In this document: positions 2,874 to 20,000 of the stretch, piece after piece
Position numbering within the stretch: position 1 is the first letter of the stretch
Layout: each line of letters begins with the position of its first letter
Virus record (IMG/VR): IMGVR_UViG_2706794523_000001
Coordinates: 53,303-73,302 of that record
Length of the DNA: 20,000 nt
Direction: 5' to 3' (one strand)
From: an uncultured virus (IMG/VR IMGVR_UViG_2706794523_000001)
Taxonomy: Duplodnaviria; Heunggongvirae; Uroviricota; Caudoviricetes; Schitoviridae
Position numbers and translations under genes: made by a program
The notes under the pieces: model-generated
Database searches by the model: none
The model's input: the letters and a program-made list of their open reading frames with translations, nothing else
What the model was told of the DNA's origin: nothing

Positions 2874-4193
2874 CAGTCCCTCGCCAGGTTCTGGAATTGC
2901 TGGGCCTGCTGCTGCGCAGCCCGCTGGCCGGACACCAGCTCAAGCGCTTCCTGGCGAGCCAGGCGCCGGGACAGATGATGCTTGTGGAGCTCCATCGCAT
3001 TGACCTGCTGGTACATATCCCGGCGGTCGACAGACGGCAGACGGTTGAAGGCGTCGGTGCGGAGGAAGGCTTCGAGCTTGTCGTAGCGCTCGGTCAGCTG
3101 CTGGAGTTNCGGCAGACGGTTGAAGGCGTCGGTGCGGAGGAAGGCTTCGAGCTTGTCGTAGCGCTCGGTCAGCTGCTGGAGTTCGAGCTTGGCCCGGATC
3201 TGCCAGGTCTCGTCGCTGGTGTGGGTCTCGTCCTCACCGCCCTTGTTCATGAAGCGGGTCATGTCGTTCATAAGGGAGAGGAGGTTCTCGTCGAGATGAT
3301 CATCTTCGGGCAGGAGCTCCCGATAACAGCCGATTGGCTGGTCTTTGTATCGGAGCTTCATACGGAGGGATTTGCCTTCGGGACCGTCACGGAGAACGAT
3401 CTCGCCGAGCCGAGTCTCCTNATCGGAGCTTCATACGGAGGGATTTGCCTTCGGGACCGTCACGGAGAACGATCTCGCCGAGCCGAGTCTCCTTGCTCGC
3501 CTCACCGGTCCCTTCCGCGCTTGCGGCTGCCGGCTGCGCCTCTGCCGCGCGCACGGGCCGGTAGGCTCGCTCGAACACTTCCTTGGGGGACCAGGAGATG
3601 TAGCCCTTGAAACCGGGGACATGGGGAGGGTTCTCGACGCGGTCGGTGTATTCGACAATGTAGCCTGCATCGTTGCCGTCTTCATTGGACGGCAAGGTCC
3701 ATCCGCGCAGCTTGTTGTATTGCTGCCGGCTCATAGGCGTGGCGTTGATCACCTTGGTTCCGATGTAGGTCTCGAAGCCTTCCTGCGGTTCTACCAGGGC
3801 GCCACCGATCAGGCGTTGGTCGCGGGCCATCCTCGACTTGAGCTCGTAGCCCATCAGCGCCCACATCTTGGCGATGGCGTCCGACTTGGCCAGGCGCTTG
3901 CCGATCTCGGGGTTGAAGTTCTTCGGGTCGGCGCACGCGCTCTGACCCAGGACGGTGAAGCCGTTCCACAGGCGCAGCACACAGATAGTCAGGAGGCCGA
4001 GGTCCGGATCCAGTGGCAAAGGGTAAGCCGGCACGGAGCCCGTCTCGACGGCAGCATCGAGAAAGCCTGCTCGGGCGCCTTGTTCCGCACTGAAGAAGTG
4101 CTCGGAGATAATGGCTGCTTCGACGTCGGCGAGGGTAACCCGTTCGCCGCGGGCGCCGTCGATCAGCTCCTGCTCGGTGACATTCGTATTCAT
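2873..4193 (-). CDS. Multidomain protein (~390 aa after removing artefact duplications): N4 gp49/Sf6 gp66 domain + YIGTK..SWSPKxVF domain + unknown domain + crAss001_48-like helical domain; putative anti-defence nucleotide sponge
   Basis: Track ORFs 3387..4313 and 2873..3361 join in frame (...GKSLRMKLR|YKDQPIG...) once 73 nt (a 72-nt copy plus the N at 3421) are removed. 1321-73-75=1173 nt = 391 codons. AAGGA lies upstream of ATG 4193. Confidence 0.75.
3035..3183. repeat. Exact 74-nt tandem duplication separated by N (assembly artefact)
   Basis: 3035-3108 = 3110-3183, N at 3109. Confidence 0.9.
3349..3493. repeat. Exact 72-nt tandem duplication separated by N (assembly artefact, causes apparent frameshift)
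   Basis: 3349-3420 = 3422-3493, N at 3421. Confidence 0.9.
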
Positions 4194-4869: not shown

Positions 4870-5400
4870 ACGATAGACATCTTTCAGATTGATCGAGGGT
4901 GGGGCTTTACAGGCCCCCTTCCCTTTGTTAAAGAGCGTGCTCTTTACCACCGCCCCACGGCCTACCTCTGCATCTCCCCCCTACTGTTTTCTTTAGAAAG
5001 AAAATAAGAAAGAGAGAGATACGGACGGGCGAAGCTATATGTGGGTGACCCCACTGGGACCTGGGGGACTCTGGTTCATTAAAGAGATAATCATTACCAC
5101 AATGATTTGAAAACCATTAAGGTAAATCCTCGCGCTATTTTTAAGGGGATTTAATAGATAATGATTAGCCTGTTTTCTCTGGCTCATTATCTTGGTTCCG
5201 ATTTTGGCGATTATGCCGCCCATTATGCAGATAATATTATCTAGATTTTTGCAGTAGCCATTTTATCATAATGACGTTCTGGTGCTGTACATACACCGGG
5301 GGTGACCCTGTCAGATTTAAATACCCCCCCGGTCTAACACCCTCACACCCATACTCACCACCCCCTGTGTTCATGGCGCTTCGCGCCTTCTGGATCATTC
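4870..5400. other. Non-coding junction of genome right end and left end (probable terminal direct-repeat region)
   Basis: AT-rich and lacking convincing ORFs. It lies between terL/gp69 (end of N4-type genomes) and the first vRNAP promoter/gp1 (start of N4-type genomes). Inverted repeat ACCGGGGG (5295-5302)/CCCCCGGT (5326-5333). Confidence 0.65.
5375..5394 (+). promoter_or_regulatory. N4-type virion RNA polymerase hairpin promoter (early promoter 1)
   Basis: GGCGC-TTC-GCGCC-TTCT-GGA: 5-bp stem, 3-nt loop (GAA on template), 4-nt spacer, G at +1. Same architecture as N4 P2 (GAAGC-TCC-GCTTC-TTTT-GGA); directly upstream of gp1. Confidence 0.85.
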
Positions 5401-6918: not shown

Positions 6919-6938
6919 GGCGCTTCGCGCCTCCGAGA
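6919..6938 (+). promoter_or_regulatory. N4-type virion RNAP hairpin promoter (early promoter 2)
   Basis: GGCGC-TTC-GCGCC-TCCGAGA, hairpin identical to 5375-5387, upstream of the gp2 homolog as in N4. Confidence 0.82.
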
Positions 6939-6977: not shown

Positions 6978-7436
6978 ATGAGCATTCTCGATTACACCCG
7001 TCCGGCTGCGCCGGCACCGACCTCGCGTTCGCCTTTCGCTGGCCTGACCAGCGTCACCAACGATCGTCCCAAGGCCAAGCTGTGGCTGAACACCGGCTAC
7101 GTCATCGCCGGCTCGGACAAGTTCATCAACCTGCCTGTCGGCCTGCCGATCGACACCATGGAACCGGCACCGGTGGGCGGCCAGAACGAAGACTGGCTGA
7201 AGCAGCGCCAGGCGCAGAACGAGTTCCTCAAGAGCCTGCAGGCTGCCGGCGCCGACATGGCACCGGGCGAGGAACGCGACATCATCCGTCAGGATATGGG
7301 CAATGGCATCACGCTTGTCGTTCGCCTGCGCCGCGTGAACGAAGAGCGGGCTGTCCCGCTGGCCACCAACGAATATGCCGTGAACTTCACGTCCATGTTC
7401 GCCAAGCCGGCGACCATGCCGGAAGCTGCCGAATAA
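6978..7436 (+). CDS. N4 gp2/Drc-like ssDNA-binding activator of RNAPII, 152 aa
   Basis: DRPKAKLWLNTGY...KFINLPVGLPIDTMEP...AQNEFL...MAPGEE...VRLRRV...NEYA matches recalled N4 gp2 (KPKAQFWLNIGY...FISLPTGIPLDTQEP...LEPGEE...VQLRRV). GGAG RBS before ATG 6978. Confidence 0.88.
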   Translation: MSILDYTRPAAPAPTSRSPFAGLTSVTNDRPKAKLWLNTGYVIAGSDKFINLPVGLPIDTMEPAPVGGQNEDWLKQRQAQNEFLKSLQAAGADMAPGEERDIIRQDMGNGITLVVRLRRVNEERAVPLATNEYAVNFTSMFAKPATMPEAAE

Positions 7437-7439
7437 GCG

Positions 7440-7953
7440 GCAACCAGTAACCCAACCCGTGGGTTGAACAGCATCTAAGCACCTGATCAATGCCGCGATG
7501 AACGAGATGCGATGCTCATTTAACTGCTCGCACAGGAGTCGTCGGGGTACGATCAGCTGCCAACGCAGGAGACTGCAACCATGGACGATTAGATCAGCCT
7601 GCCCGGAGCCATAGGCTCTTGGCAGGTAGGCTACCCAGCTTTTCATGCCCCAATGTGGGTATTCATAGCGCCCTCATATCGACCGCTCATTCGGGCACAT
7701 CTGGCGCACCGATTATCAACTAAATCATCTGATTGGCGTTCCAATCGACCGCGGCGACAATATCGATTCAGTTCGATCGCACCGCGCTAGAGCGTGTCTG
7801 CCATAATACCTCTCGCTGAATGCGGGTCCTGCCCATTGGACCTTAACTATGGCAGCCCCAGAGGCTCTAACCGTGCGAGTAAGCTGCAGCGTGAGTGCAG
7901 CACCTTGAGGAGGCGTTCCCGTGTGAAAGGGGGCGTCTCCTCCTTTTATTTTC
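7440..7953 (+). ncRNA. Candidate large structured ncRNA (~510 nt)
   Basis: No credible plus-strand ORF; more than 10 stem-loops including GNRA tetraloops; ends in an intrinsic terminator. Confidence 0.5.
7907..7953 (+). terminator. Rho-independent terminator
   Basis: GAGGAGGCGTTCCC-GTGTGAAA-GGGGGCGTCTCCTC followed by CTTTTATTTTC. Confidence 0.8.
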
Positions 7954-8105
7954 AAAAGGGATAGACAGGCATTATCTTTAAAAATAATGAGGAATATGCC
8001 TGTGGATAAGTCGGAGAATTTCGACTCGATTCCTACTTCCTGATTAACTTACTAAATGCTAATCCGACTTTTCTCCAAAAATCGGCGATAAGGAGCCTAA
8101 AATCC

Positions 8106-11177: not shown

Positions 11178-11562
11178 ATGGCCAAAGAACAGGCCGATCT
11201 GAAGACCTGGCGTGTCACCGACACGCTGGGGAATGTCGAGATGATCAAGGCCCACTTTCTCTTCCGTGAGGAGAATGGTGGGATCACCTTCCGTTTCAAG
11301 ACAGACACTCAATCCTATGTGCCAGCCTGCTATGGCGCCGGCCAGTTCGTATCGTGCATCNACCTTCCGTTTCAAGACAGACACTCAATCCTATGTGCCA
11401 GCCTGCTATGGCGCCGGCCAGTTCGTATCGTGCATCCTGCTCGATCCGCCTGCCGAGCCTGCCGCTGCACCGACGGGCACCTTACCTCCCAAGCAGGCGC
11501 CCGTCATCCCATTCCACAAGCGAGGGCGCTACGCCCAGCTCGACGACGAGATCCCCTTCTAG
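11178..11562 (+). CDS. Hypothetical protein (~102 aa after removing artefact) ending in SSB-like DDEIPF tail
   Basis: MAKEQADLKTWRVTDTLGNVE...FVSCI|LLDPPAEPAAAP...YAQLDDEIPF joins in frame after removing the 76-nt artefact (75-nt copy plus N). Confidence 0.7.
11286..11436. repeat. Exact 75-nt tandem duplication separated by N (assembly artefact)
   Basis: 11286-11360 = 11362-11436, N at 11361. Confidence 0.9.
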
Positions 11563-13378: not shown

Positions 13379-13758
13379 GCCTCATCTTCGTCTTCGGCTC
13401 CAACACAGCCGGCCGGCACGGCAAGGGGGCAGCTCTCACTGCCCTGCGCCACCACGGCGCCATCTACGGCCAGAGCACCGGCCTCATGGGAAACGCCTAC
13501 GCACTGCCCACTTGTGACGCCGGCTTCAGATCGCTGCCGCTGCAGATAATCAGGCACGAAGTCCAGCATTTCATCGCGTTTGCTCGCTCTCGCAAGGACC
13601 TGGGCTTCCAGGTAACCCGAGTCGGCTGCGGCCTCGCCTACAACACGGACGATCAGATCGCCCCGATGTTCAAGGAAGCGCCTGCTTTGAACGTGTTCTT
13701 TGACGAAAAATGGAGGCCGTTCCTCGGGAACGGATATGACTATTGGGGAACGTTCTAA
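13375..13758 (+). CDS. N4 gp14-like protein (macrodomain-like fold)
   Basis: IFVFGSNTAGRHGKGAA...GAIYGQSTGLMGNAYALPT...FQVTRVGCGLA...IAPMF; syntenic just before RNAP1 as in N4. Confidence 0.85.
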   Translation: MSLIFVFGSNTAGRHGKGAALTALRHHGAIYGQSTGLMGNAYALPTCDAGFRSLPLQIIRHEVQHFIAFARSRKDLGFQVTRVGCGLAYNTDDQIAPMFKEAPALNVFFDEKWRPFLGNGYDYWGTF

Positions 13759-13818
13759 GACTGCTCATCCAGATCATCGGGATCTCGATCACCCTGGTTC
13801 GCCAGGCCCAACAACACC

Positions 13819-13849
13819 AAAGGTCGCTCAGCAATGAGCGGCCTTTTTT
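13819..13849 (+). terminator. Rho-independent terminator
   Basis: AAAGGTCGCTCA-GCAA-TGAGCGGCCTTT-TTT. Confidence 0.8.
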
Positions 13850-13931
13850 GCATCTATCACCGGCTACCGCACCGCTAGGCTTTCGCATCGAGCCGGCGCC
13901 AATCCCTGTTCCAACAATCGAGGAGAAAAAC

Positions 13932-14741
13932 ATGCTCGAATTCCAGATTGAGATCGAGAAGCTCTTCCACAAGAACCAGCTCTTCCCCAGGATCAAGGGC
14001 GAGTTCACCGGCTGCAAGGAGTTCGACTTCGCCAAGCATATGAAGGCGCACGGCATAGAGCCGGAGTTCGGCTACGATCTCCTGGTCCAGATGGTTCTCA
14101 ACAAGCGGGCGCCCCTGCAGACCCTGGTCGGCGTCCTACGCAAGCACTTCGGTGGCGACTGCCAGAAGACCGCTGACGCCCTCGTCAAGGCCTGTGAGGC
14201 CGATATGGTCGACTGGAACCCTGTCCAGCGCCAGTTCATCGTCCGCTTCGGCATCTCGCCGGACATCCAGGAGGATCTCGACCGCTACCAGTATCCCCTG
14301 CCGATGGTTGTCGAGCCAAAGGAGCTGACGGCCAACAACACCAGCGGCTACTATACCGGCAAGGACTCGGTCATCCTGCGCGACAACTACCACGACTACG
14401 ACGTGTGTCTCGACCACCTGAACGCGATCAACAAGACCAAGTTCAGGATCAACCAGCAGGTGGCGACCAAGGTCAAGAACAGCTGGCGCAACCTCGACAA
14501 GCCCAAGCCCGACGAAGACCGGGCCGAGTATGAAAAGCGGGTGCGTGCGTTCGAGAAATACGATCGCACCGCCCACGACGTCATGCATCACCTGGGTCTC
14601 GCCGGCGAAGGGGAGTTCTACCTCACCCACAAATACGATAAACGTGGCAGGACCTACTGCCAGGGCTATGTCGTCAACTACCAGGGCACGGCCTGGAACA
14701 AGGCAGTGATCGAGTTCGCCAACCAGGAGGTCATTGAATGA
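13932..14741 (+). CDS. N4-like RNA polymerase II subunit 1 (gp15), 269 aa
   Basis: GAGGAG RBS; YQYPLPMVVEP...SGYY...DVCLDHLN...FYLTHKYDKRGRTYCQGY (DxxGR motif). Confidence 0.95.
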   Translation: MLEFQIEIEKLFHKNQLFPRIKGEFTGCKEFDFAKHMKAHGIEPEFGYDLLVQMVLNKRAPLQTLVGVLRKHFGGDCQKTADALVKACEADMVDWNPVQRQFIVRFGISPDIQEDLDRYQYPLPMVVEPKELTANNTSGYYTGKDSVILRDNYHDYDVCLDHLNAINKTKFRINQQVATKVKNSWRNLDKPKPDEDRAEYEKRVRAFEKYDRTAHDVMHHLGLAGEGEFYLTHKYDKRGRTYCQGYVVNYQGTAWNKAVIEFANQEVIE

Positions 14742-15944: not shown

Positions 15945-17150
15945 ATGTTCCAGGAATTCACCGGACGCGAATATCTCAAGATCGACATCGCCAACAACTT
16001 TGGCCTCGACAAGCAGGACTGGGACGTTCGGCTCGATTGGTTCGACAAGAACGAGCACCAGCTGCACACCCTCCTCAACAAGGCGGAAGAGCCAGCCCTC
16101 TTCTACGCCGCCATCCTCGCCTGGGAAGCAGCCAAGGCCGGCAAGCCCTCGGGCTACCCGATCTCGCTCGACGCCACCTGCTCGGGCATCCAGATCCTGG
16201 CAGCCCTGGCCGGCGATCGTAAGGCGGCGCAGATCTGCAACGTCGTCGACACCGGTCATCGGGAAGACGCCTATGTCTCGATCTACCAGGACATGGTCAA
16301 CAAGCTGGGCGATGCTGCCAAGATCGACCGCAAGCTCACCAAGCAGGCCATCATGACCCATTTCTACAGCTCGACGGCAGTGCCGAAGAGCGTGTTCGGC
16401 GAGGGCCAGCTGCTCTCGATCTTCTATGACACCGTGCGCGAGAATGCGCCGGGAGCCAGTGAGATCACCGACACCATGCTGGCCATCTGGGACGAGACCA
16501 AGCTCGTCTACGAATGGGTCCTGCCCGACAACTTCCATGTCGTCGTCAAGGTCATGGGCTCAGTCACCGAGACCGTCCACTTCCTCAACGCACCGTTTGA
16601 CATCTCCTACAACGTCAATATGCCCATCAAGGGCGGCCGTTCGCTGGGCGCCCACAAGAACCACTCTGTTGACGGCATGATCGTTCGCGAGATGCAGCGG
16701 CGCTGCAACTACAACCCGGAGAAGATCCAGGAGCTCACCAAGCTCCTCGACGCCGGCGCAGCGGGCCGCAGCACGCATCGATACCAGGACAAGCTGCTGA
16801 TCACCCTGCTGGAGCACCACAGGCATTCCAGATTCCTGTCAGCGCGTGTTCTCGACTTGCTCGACATAGACAACCTGGGCCTGATCTCTCCGGCCCTGGT
16901 ATACGACCTGATCCACAGCCTGCCCAAGAAGCCTTTCGAGGTCATCTCGGTGCACGACTGCTGGAGATGCCTGCCCAACTATGGCAACGATCTGCGCCGG
17001 CAGTATAACAATCTGCTCGCTCTGATCGCGGAATCGGAGCTGCTGGGCTTCATCGTCGCCCAGATCATGAACCGTCCGATGTTCACCATCAACAAGCTCG
17101 ACCCTCACCTGGGCCGGGACATCCGCAATGCGAACTACGCTCTCTCGTAA
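15945..17150 (+). CDS. N4-like RNA polymerase II subunit 2 (gp16), 401 aa
   Basis: FTGREYLKIDIANNFGLDK, motif A LDATCSGIQ, motif B RKLTKQAIMTHFY, motif C SVHDCW, C-terminal ANYALS. Confidence 0.96.
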   Translation: MFQEFTGREYLKIDIANNFGLDKQDWDVRLDWFDKNEHQLHTLLNKAEEPALFYAAILAWEAAKAGKPSGYPISLDATCSGIQILAALAGDRKAAQICNVVDTGHREDAYVSIYQDMVNKLGDAAKIDRKLTKQAIMTHFYSSTAVPKSVFGEGQLLSIFYDTVRENAPGASEITDTMLAIWDETKLVYEWVLPDNFHVVVKVMGSVTETVHFLNAPFDISYNVNMPIKGGRSLGAHKNHSVDGMIVREMQRRCNYNPEKIQELTKLLDAGAAGRSTHRYQDKLLITLLEHHRHSRFLSARVLDLLDIDNLGLISPALVYDLIHSLPKKPFEVISVHDCWRCLPNYGNDLRRQYNNLLALIAESELLGFIVAQIMNRPMFTINKLDPHLGRDIRNANYALS

Positions 17151-18561: not shown

Positions 18562-18728
18562 CATCCCGCATCAACCGACAGGTTGAGAGGCTGACCAAGC
18601 AGATGCACCGCATCAATTCCGAGGCTGCCTCTCAAGCCTGCATAGAGTTGATGCTCACCGATCACACAACCGAAGAAGTAGTCACCTGGCTCCGTGCCTG
18701 GGCGACGTACCTGGAAGAACGTTCGTGA
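18558..18728 (+). CDS. Hypothetical protein, 56 aa
   Basis: MTSRINRQVERLTKQMHRINSEAASQACIELMLTDHTTEEVVTWLRAWATYLEERS*; AAGGA RBS; ATGA and GTGA overlaps. Confidence 0.65.
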   Translation: MTSRINRQVERLTKQMHRINSEAASQACIELMLTDHTTEEVVTWLRAWATYLEERS

Positions 18729-18958
18729 CACGCTCCCTCGCCATCTCCCAACGCCAAGTTCAGTCGCTGATTCGGGCGGCCGATGCCGAAAAAGCTATTG
18801 TAGAAGTCAAGGTCGGAAACGCTGTTTACCGACTTATCCCCAAATCTCTCGCCGATATCGCCGCACCGGCTCTTGACGAGAGTCCCTCTCCGTCCGCCTT
18901 TAAGAACCTGGATGAATACCGGGCTTGGAGGGAGAGGCACCGTGATCGTGAAGATTAA
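18725..18958 (+). CDS. Putative excisionase/recombination directionality factor, 77 aa
   Basis: Small ORF overlapping the integrase start. ISQRQVQSLIRAA...IVEVKVG..YRLIP resembles small proteins that precede alphaproteobacterial prophage integrases. Confidence 0.5.
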   Translation: MTRSLAISQRQVQSLIRAADAEKAIVEVKVGNAVYRLIPKSLADIAAPALDESPSPSAFKNLDEYRAWRERHRDRED

Positions 18959-20000
18959 GGGTATCCACAAGGTCAAGATGACGCTGGCTGATGGGTCGAA
19001 GGAGACCTACTACTACGCTTGGCGTGGCGGCCCCCGCATGAAGTCGGCGCCGCACACCGAGGCGTTTGCTCGCGAGCATGCCCGTCTCAAGGACAAGGCC
19101 GCCGAGATCTCCAAGGTCATGCCGACCCTGGATACCCTGATCGAATATTTCACCGGGCCGGAAGCCGAGCTCAATCCCGACTTCCTGGCTCTGGCCGAAA
19201 GCACTCGTGTCGATCACCAATATGCCCACAAGCTGATCCTCAAGGAATGGCCCGGGCTGCCCCTCTCCTTCACGCAAGCGAAGGGCTTCAAAGGCGACAT
19301 TCGTAAATGGCATCGCAGCATGCGAGCCAACCCGAGAAAGGCCGACAAGGCTCTTTTCTCCCTCTCGAAGGTGTTCTCCTACGCCATCGAGAATGAATAT
19401 GACGGGATAGACAAGAACCCCTGCACCGGCATCAACCGGCTCTACAAGGGATCCAGAAAGGACTTCCTGTGGACCGCCGAGCAGATAGCCATCCTGCGCG
19501 AGAAGCTTGAGGCGCACTTGTTGCTGCCATTCGAGATCGCACTCGCCACCGGCCAGCGCCAGGGTGACATCCTGTCAATGACCTGGAAGCAGTGGGACGG
19601 CATCTACCTGATGTTCAAACAGTCGAAGACCGGCAAGCAGCTCAAGGTCAAGGCTAACCCCCGGCTCAAGGCTCTGCTGGATCCGCTGGCTGTCACAAAT
19701 AGGGACAAGATCCGGGTCTGCCTCAATTCTCGCAGCCGGCCATGGACCAAGGATGGCTTCAAGACGTCCTGGGGCAAGGCGATGGCCTCCGAGGAGATCA
19801 ACATCAAGGGCGTCACGTACCACGACCTACGCGGGACGTTCATCTGCGATCGAGCCAGGGAAGGCTCATCGATCGAGGACATCGCCCGCATATCCGGCCA
19901 CTCGATGGCCGAGATCAAATCGGTGCTCGAAAAGCACTATCTGGCTACCGATCAGGGGCTCTCCGACGCGGTTATCGATCGCATGCAGAAGAACCCTTAG
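18942..20000 (+). CDS. int: Tyrosine recombinase/integrase, ~352 aa
   Basis: N-terminal YYYAWRGGPR arm-binding motif. Catalytic R (TGQRQGD), K (QSKTG), HDLR, SGH, KHY. GGAGG/GAGG before GTG 18942; TAG at 19998-20000. Confidence 0.93.
   Translation: MIVKIKGIHKVKMTLADGSKETYYYAWRGGPRMKSAPHTEAFAREHARLKDKAAEISKVMPTLDTLIEYFTGPEAELNPDFLALAESTRVDHQYAHKLILKEWPGLPLSFTQAKGFKGDIRKWHRSMRANPRKADKALFSLSKVFSYAIENEYDGIDKNPCTGINRLYKGSRKDFLWTAEQIAILREKLEAHLLLPFEIALATGQRQGDILSMTWKQWDGIYLMFKQSKTGKQLKVKANPRLKALLDPLAVTNRDKIRVCLNSRSRPWTKDGFKTSWGKAMASEEINIKGVTYHDLRGTFICDRAREGSSIEDIARISGHSMAEIKSVLEKHYLATDQGLSDAVIDRMQKNP

Follow-up and report, generated by a model that had tools for sequence, protein, structure and literature searches.

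A conserved structured RNA with a start-stop mini-ORF behind gp2 of an N4-like provirus and in two other phage lineages

What does the half-kilobase behind gp2 of an integrase-bearing N4-like phage encode? The DNA analysed here (the window, 20,000 nucleotides) is the final 20 kb of the 73.3-kb provirus record G000, which is N4-like and in which profile annotation places a tyrosine integrase at the window end. An initial annotation had read positions 7440-7953 as a candidate structured, non-coding RNA on the plus strand, possibly a new large class. Large structured RNAs from the early regions of phages are so far few. We concluded that the element is a real and new conserved RNA motif, from which we infer a mechanism below, and that the RNA probably acts on the host cell.

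Folding of the stretch behind gp2 and its homologs

The plus strand of 7440-7953 folded better than shuffled controls (z = -4.36; 0 of 100 shuffles as good as the native sequence), in line with the continuous pairing seen by the initial annotation; for the minus strand, z was -2.15 and 3 of 100 shuffles were as good. Without the terminator, the z-score was -2.74. The folding signal came mostly from the terminator and the 5′ part, 7440-7660 (z = -6.08), and the part with the conserved core, 7655-7905, scored only -0.76.

Stems that had been read from the letters were fully paired at 7453-57/7462-66, 7537-43/7584-90, 7565-68/7573-76, 7645-50/7657-62, 7668-72/7703-07, 7731-36/7741-46, 7750-54/7782-86, 7798-7805/7848-55 and 7883-88/7896-7901. 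The terminator stem 7907-20/7929-42 paired at 14 of 14 positions, and the hairpin at 7597-7627 and the stem at 7825-7842 were present in the computed fold. Several of these stems were not conserved among homologs: the helix 7798-7805/7848-55 had no conserved support (mean z -0.17), and the stems 7537/7584 and 7565 would mask the Shine-Dalgarno sequence (SD) and the AUG described below, which was not seen as a conserved feature in homologs.

We collected 13 distinct sequences of the element, including that of the window, across three unrelated phage lineages, with pairwise identities of 41-66% in the alignment of homologs. A gp2 profile found seven IMG/VR loci, with the element present in L002, L004 and L008 and absent from L003, L005 and L006/L007; a first gp2 scan of IMG/VR and a gp2 scan of GTDB gave no matches. 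Pattern scans added L074; L092, L093, L098, L099, L100, L103 and L104; and L273. Two further loci, L106 and L227, were repeats of L104 and were not counted among the 13. In the scan yielding L092-L104, 12 of 16 matches were homologs, counting repeats, and four other pattern scans gave 66, 13, 83 and 55 loci, with L074 and L273 as the sole additions. A model based on 8 homologs recovered all 13 and found nothing in the gp2 loci of 7 non-carriers.

Five carriers are N4-like (the query, L002, L008, L273 and L004, the shortest homolog), six are siphoviruses of one group with genomes of about 80 kb, and two fall in a podovirus group. The element is not confined to Schitoviridae: 8 of 13 homologs were in non-N4 phages, and 7 of the 12 examined N4-like gp2 regions lacked the RNA.

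Searches with blastn for the element and its homologs found no homolog in 50,697 GenBank phage records or in plasmids. A block-A pattern gave five matches in GTDB, none a homolog, which is a weak negative because the strict pattern fits only some of the 13. Model R1 gave no match in 151 alphaproteobacterial genomes, a search that had no positive control and shows little; genome-wide negatives with R1 are imperfect, since it missed 2 of 7 known carriers.

Known families did not account for the element. Rfam 15 (E up to 5 and 10) gave no match in it when the window was searched, including ROOL, GOLLD, OLE and C4, and no match over the core in 12 homolog loci (E up to 10). ARAGORN found no tRNA or tmRNA in the window or in any of the 12 homolog loci.

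Table 1. Coordinates of the RNA element and its upstream neighbours in the window
Feature	Position	Strand	Basis or remark
Candidate N4-type virion-RNA-polymerase hairpin promoter	6919..6931	+	5-bp stem, 3-nt loop
N4 gp2/Drc-family gene, upstream neighbour outside the RNA	6978..7436	+	phrog_4099
P0, long irregular hairpin ending just ahead of the SD	7479..7560	+	Computed fold
SD (AGGAG) of the mini-ORF	7567..7571	+	SD recurs in homologs
Mini-ORF M-D-D-stop	7581..7592	+	Recurs in homologs
Two variable spacer hairpins	7597..7662	+	Fold; homolog spacer 7-72 nt
Core block A: invariant AUA, Pa 7668-7672/7703-7707, then A (12/13)	7665..7708	+	Covariation
Variable domain	7709..7812	+	Homolog comparison
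Core block B: U, 3-bp hairpin 7814-7824, Pe 7825-7828/7839-7842, UUAAC	7813..7847	+	Covariation
Pf, 3′ hairpin with GNRA-like loop	7883..7901	+	Similar hairpin in homologs
Intrinsic terminator, 14 bp and U run; ancestral gp2 terminator	7907..7953	+	Then GATAG 7960-7964

Conserved core, mini-ORF and 3′ end

From 5′ to 3′, the element consists of a hairpin, an SD, an AUG, one to four codons, a stop, the spacer, AUA with helix Pa, the variable domain, a U, a 3-bp hairpin whose loop reads UGA-N(N), helix Pe followed by UUAAC-like letters, a further hairpin or two, of which the last is capped by a GNRA-like loop, and the terminator. The three helices of the core, with 12 modelled pairs, were paired in 156 of 156 cells (13 sequences). 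There were 11 compensatory double changes, at four pairs, and the covariation score was reached by 0 of 500 shuffles. The structure guided the fitting of this alignment, but an anchor-based script gave identical counts, as did a plain MAFFT alignment in the case of Pe. Pa was paired in 13 of 13 homologs, with CG in 11 and UA in 2 at position 2, and CG in 9, GC in 3 and AU in 1 at position 4. For Pe, position 1 was GC in 8, CG in 4 and GU in 1, and position 3 was UA in 12 and CG in 1. The letters of the 3-bp hairpin never vary, so its pairing is unproven. Block B was set by the search pattern for 8 of 13 homologs, and its invariance is therefore partly built in; the remaining five all have block B.

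No reading frame was conserved across the core, 8 of 13 homologs had no open frame on either strand, and the spacing between blocks A and B occurred in all three phases. A protein-coding gene was rejected because no frame is conserved across the element. The covariation, the lack of an Rfam family and the lack of a conserved peptide spanning the core support the new class of plus-strand non-coding RNA proposed initially. The accompanying claim that the plus strand is free of coding was right for the core and wrong ahead of it, where the AGGAG and the three-codon ORF recur in homologs. That the element is no RNA at all, being a DNA-level element, a coding remnant or the work of chance, would suit the weak folding score of the core but is very improbable, given the spacing and missing frames just described, the location of the SD, the mini-ORF, the terminator and the G-U pair all on one strand, and the presence of block A in 7 of 7 homologs found by block B alone, compared with 1 of the 120 metagenome pattern matches listed (the sole real homolog among these 120 was a duplicate of L104).

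An SD with an AUG ORF was found in 12 of 13 homologs, and in 11 of 13 this ORF had at most five amino acids, compared with 36 of 3310 random 160-nt windows. The homolog mini-peptides (MCM, MR, MK, MTVTL, MKL, MKLI, MKI, MRKL, MKK and MRI) were unrelated in sequence, although the second residue was K or R in 8 of 11. The exceptions were L093, with an ORF of 27 amino acids, and L104, with neither SD nor mini-ORF. No conserved anti-SD pairing was found among the homologs. In L100 and L273 the stop is only 7-8 nt ahead of block A, so that a terminating ribosome would overlap the core. Judged from these sequences, what is kept is initiation and a quick stop, and the peptide is free to change.

Most homolog folds have a hairpin ahead of the SD, and L092 and L103 have the basal stem of P0 as well; P0 is, from its fold, a possible processing site or 5′ shield. 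The variable domain is probably closed by a helix at about 7732-7737 with 7800-7805, for which the modelling gave modest support (mean z -1.05; -15.1 kcal/mol for the native strands compared with -12.9 across homologs). Three rhizosphere metagenome runs gave contigs covering the region of the element. One of them matches 7551-7730 with 1 difference in 180 and has 86 other letters in place of 7731-7811, a hint only, since the contigs may come from different phages. Long-range pairings of the SD with the core, of the 5′ arm with the 3′ arm and of the core with the 3′ region had no support in homologs, and no antisense target near the RNA was supported.

A Pf-like hairpin lies 40-47 nt behind the core in 7 of 13 homologs. 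The terminator starts 59 nt after the core in the query, 58 in L004, 61 in L074, 62 in L092 and 60 in L103, that is, at 58-62 nt in 5 of 13 homologs spanning two lineages; in L002 the distance is 92 nt. A script found a canonical terminator in 6 of 13, inspection by eye added L008 and L273, and none was clear in L093, L098, L100 and L104. No conserved anti-terminator strand was found among the homologs. In L099 (1356-1445, minus strand), the terminator is replaced, at about +58, by a tRNA-like element with an 8-bp acceptor-like stem and a T-arm, which gave a weak tRNA-Sec match of 13 bits and no ARAGORN call. From its sequence, such an element at the usual terminator position suggests a defined 3′ end. 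In L098 (1555-1640), the RNA is followed by a very long, almost perfect hairpin that contains a repeated palindrome.

Genomic setting and carriers

The gene upstream had been identified as gp2, and its phrog_4099 match agrees with this; the family is annotated as 'RNAP1 subunit A' in N4-like phages. The hairpin at 6919, read initially as a virion-RNA-polymerase promoter, recurs ahead of gp2 in L002, L003, L004 and L008, and its resemblance to N4-type promoters makes it a candidate. A second candidate lies at 5375-5387, and a third hairpin fitting the pattern falls within gp2. Further downstream in the window, the scan found no N4-type hairpin promoter, the stretch from the terminator of the element to the RNA polymerase II subunit genes (13743-14741 and 15945-17150) included. 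Co-transcription of the RNA with gp2, also proposed initially, is not general, with a terminator or terminator-like hairpin between the two in L002, L004 and L273.

In four cultured lytic N4-like rhizobial phages, a terminator and GATAG follow gp2 within about 100 nt. Because these phages have the order gp2-terminator-GATAG, the RNA is an insertion ahead of the ancestral gp2 terminator. GATAG and the AT-rich stretch behind it (7960-8105) are conserved behind the gp2 terminator in relatives, whether or not these carry the RNA, and form a candidate middle promoter.

For a long time N4-like phages were regarded as strictly lytic, and members with an integrase are known from sequence descriptions (as stated in PMC10654107). 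In the window, the integrase and a small gene ahead of it, a possible excisionase, lie directly behind the RNA polymerase II genes (18725-20000), as the integrase does in three related N4-like records. The two genes mark G000 as a temperate N4-like phage, and the RNA offers a concrete, mutable element for the question of how an N4-like prophage transcribes its early genes. Elsewhere in the window, short tandem duplications around N letters (about 3035-3130, 3350-3440 and 11285-11380) look like assembly-gap artefacts. In the N4-like non-carrier G016 (L401/L402), the RNA polymerase II large-subunit gene is split in two, with about 770 nt between the parts, perhaps through an intron or insertion.

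Among the siphovirus-group carriers, G008, G011 and G012 have common portal, terminase and capsid families, and G001, G006 and G007 were placed with G008 through shared neighbouring genes. A T7-type polymerase was matched in none of the six. Genes downstream of the RNA were unrelated among carriers. No protein common to the three lineages was found (G000 compared with G008 and G010-G014; G008 with G010, G013 and part of G014), and no HTH repressor was clearly common to carriers. By source names, one N4-like and one siphovirus carrier have Mesorhizobium proteins, and cultured Mesorhizobium strains harbour two of the carriers as prophages. In G008, a T7 gp0.7-like protein kinase gene (L409:11-616) lies shortly behind the RNA, and an RtcB-type RNA ligase gene (L409:10037-11431) is in the same operon.

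A tyrosine integrase was present in 8 of 8 carriers that were at least 97% complete and in the half-complete G012, compared with 0 of 9 complete non-carriers. All 9 carriers with an integrase had the RNA on the strand of that gene, 9-20 kb upstream. No integrase was found in five fragmentary carrier records, G003, G010, G011, G013 (80% complete) and G014. Records G017-G020 (72-78% complete), with the same siphovirus upstream gene, had neither RNA nor integrase. An RNA polymerase II tree of 11 N4-like genomes did not reject a single origin of four carriers (p-AU 0.29), and the integrase correlation may rest on two independent origins because the N4-like carriers may be one clade. The RNA spans three unrelated virion types, goes with integrase-bearing genomes and retains a start-stop mini-gene with a freely changing peptide.

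Carriers also had a second candidate structured RNA, about 150 nt long (G000:C1:4746-4803, outside the window; L409:1898-1955; loci L416-L421). It has a covarying long outer stem, an invariant 8-nt segment complementary to an internal loop and a C/U-rich, anti-SD-like stretch; by their sequences, the two invariant complementary segments could form a pseudoknot. It folded with z = -3.06, had no Rfam match and was unrelated to the main RNA. Six of the 8 near-complete carriers, from two lineages, had this element, and 0 of 9 complete non-carriers did, barring one weak 18-nt match; it was not found in G004, G009 or any fragmentary carrier. Its pairing with the SD region of the main RNA was not significant (z -2.6 to +0.8). 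The co-occurrence of the two could be explained by a shared host gene pool.

Proposed function and known systems

We tentatively favour, with confidence slightly below even, a discrete early RNA whose 5′ end is shielded by ribosomes and whose 3′ end is shielded by the terminator, and whose core binds a host factor as a decoy. Such an RNA would be abundant, about 340-390 nt long, and act in trans. It would be made from a strong early promoter and, upon prophage induction, by the host polymerase. Ribosomes cycling on the mini-ORF would block decay from the 5′ end, so that initiation would matter and the peptide would not, and the terminator would set and protect the 3′ end. Blocks A and B would dock into one tertiary fold binding a host protein or RNP of rhizobia, and the likeliest role would be to act as a decoy for a host factor involved in RNA binding, translation or defence against phages; the RNA would then be a further class in phage host take-over.

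The free peptide, the kept initiation and stop, the unpaired SD, the fixed 3′ distance and the absence of a switch pairing argue for a discrete RNA with shielded ends. Action in trans on a host factor is supported by the absence of a phage protein common to the three lineages. The weak folding energy of the core, despite its conservation, would fit folding through tertiary contacts or stabilisation by a protein. As described in PMC5737220, a ribosome on a strong SD blocks a 5′ exonuclease in Bacillus subtilis, and protection in Escherichia coli needs translating ribosomes. The precedent for an SD shield comes from a Firmicute and could be carried over to the alphaproteobacterial host here only by analogy. 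In phage LUZ7, gp01 and Drc are described as making up 90% of early transcripts (PMC9163698); if LUZ7 is typical, the position behind gp2 would imply high early abundance. Against the decoy reading are the terminator found by script in only 6 of 13 homologs, the 27 codons of L093, the missing mini-ORF of L104 and the stops close to block A in L100 and L273, and it leaves the link to integrase-bearing genomes unexplained.

A broader reading, possible but somewhat unlikely, is that of a ribosome-loaded RNA traded among rhizobial phages, in which the mini-gene would couple host translation to a core that reprograms host machinery, with a bearing on prophage induction. Its target would be RNA polymerase read-through or a defence factor; it would help an N4-like prophage restart without an injected polymerase, and the second RNA may be its partner.

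The main rival, unlikely in our view, is a cis-acting antiterminator or attenuator like put of phage HK022, in which the nascent core would bind host RNA polymerase for read-through of early-operon terminators to xis-int. Upon induction, an N4-like prophage lacks the virion polymerase that injection supplies and would depend on read-through, the window scan gave no N4-type promoter between the terminator and the RNA polymerase II genes, and the mini-ORF would tie folding of the core to translation. The presence of the integrase in every near-complete carrier and in no complete non-carrier, the location of the RNA upstream on the same strand and the fixed distance from core to terminator fit as well. 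According to PMC9378689, put works without a phage protein and over distances of at least 10 kb. However, put is about 70 nt with two stems near a promoter, whereas the element is at least 300 nt and lies kilobases into the siphovirus-group operon. The integrase correlation may reflect two origins, the podovirus carrier G013 shows no tyrosine integrase at 80% completeness, and all early genes lie on that strand in any case. The tRNA-like element of L099 suits a 3′ end better than a target of read-through. Were the RNA an antiterminator, it would join put as a second solution made of RNA only.

A toxin RNA of the CreT or minigene kind is quite improbable. In it, the heavily translated mini-ORF, with ribosomes held by the downstream structure, would sequester ribosomes or tRNAs and so serve to take over the host or to enforce prophage addiction. 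The order of parts is the same as in CreT as described in PMC8501985 (strong SD, AUG, mini-ORF, downstream structure), and the second small RNA, given its distribution among near-complete carriers, could be the antidote. However, there were no tandem rare codons (as judged from the homolog codons; the only repeated codon was AAG AAG in L103), and codons vary among homologs. The conserved core far exceeds the single stem-loop that CreT needs, and the would-be antidote was not found in several carriers and did not pair significantly with the SD region.

Short invariant clusters, covarying helices, variable inserts and a GNRA-like loop are typical of catalytic and aptamer RNAs. The element has two such clusters and all these other traits, and it could represent a new ribozyme or an aptamer for some ligand, serving to cut or mature the early transcript or to sense a metabolite. 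We give this reading little credence, because no Rfam ribozyme or riboswitch matched at E up to 10, no conserved expression platform, neither anti-SD nor anti-terminator, was seen, and the downstream genes are unrelated among carriers. A riboswitch or attenuator was rejected for want of such a conserved pairing. HDV-like ribozymes have, behind P4, an unpaired C that never varies and, behind P3, the 3′ strand of P1; here the would-be catalytic C covaries as a pair (GC/CG/GU) and there is no room for the P1 strand. Resemblances to glmS, hatchet, twister-sister, the c-di-AMP riboswitch, group I/II introns and two-piece tmRNA had no Rfam or ARAGORN match. A retron or defence-RT RNA was rejected, with a reverse transcriptase in 0 of 12 carrier records searched (controls were detected in 3 of 14).

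A description of the motif was not found in the literature searched, most subscription journals being outside that search. The part compared of the viral RNA candidates of Fremin et al. 2023 (PMC10690425), the characteristic tables and lists, gave no match, and a fragment of the element may be among the 10,006 candidates reported there.

Among known systems, the closest in general build are several. ROOL, GOLLD and OLE are large orphan RNAs of phages and bacteria of unknown role. The element is like them in its multiple helices, conserved core, variable inserts and association with phages, and unlike them in being smaller, in carrying, by its sequence, a mini-ORF, and in having no Rfam match. 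LUZ7 has putative non-coding RNAs in an N4-like genome, but these are described as late, shorter than 250 nt and located between orf69 and orf70 (PMC9163698). With hbs of B. subtilis (PMC5737220), the element would share a ribosome on a strong SD that could shield the RNA behind it; there the SD protects an mRNA, whereas here a non-coding fold in an alphaproteobacterial host is proposed to be protected by analogy.

HK022 put, as described in PMC9378689, similarly occurs in the early operon of temperate phages, upstream of terminators and without a phage protein partner. By that description it sits at or within 270 nt of the early promoter, whereas the element is not promoter-proximal, is several times the length of the two-stem put, has a mini-ORF and also occurs in N4-like phages and a podovirus group; with no integrase seen in them, the podovirus carriers fit the temperate setting of put less. 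With CreT (PMC8501985), the element shares a strong SD, an AUG, a mini-ORF and a stop followed by structure (11 of 13 homologs) and, as far as described there, the irrelevance of the peptide. It differs in its codons, in its far larger core and in its location in a phage early region instead of a CRISPR locus; no cas gene was among the matches of partial PHROG scans. The element fails a defining test of every family tried: it is built like CreT and placed like put, and is a member of neither.
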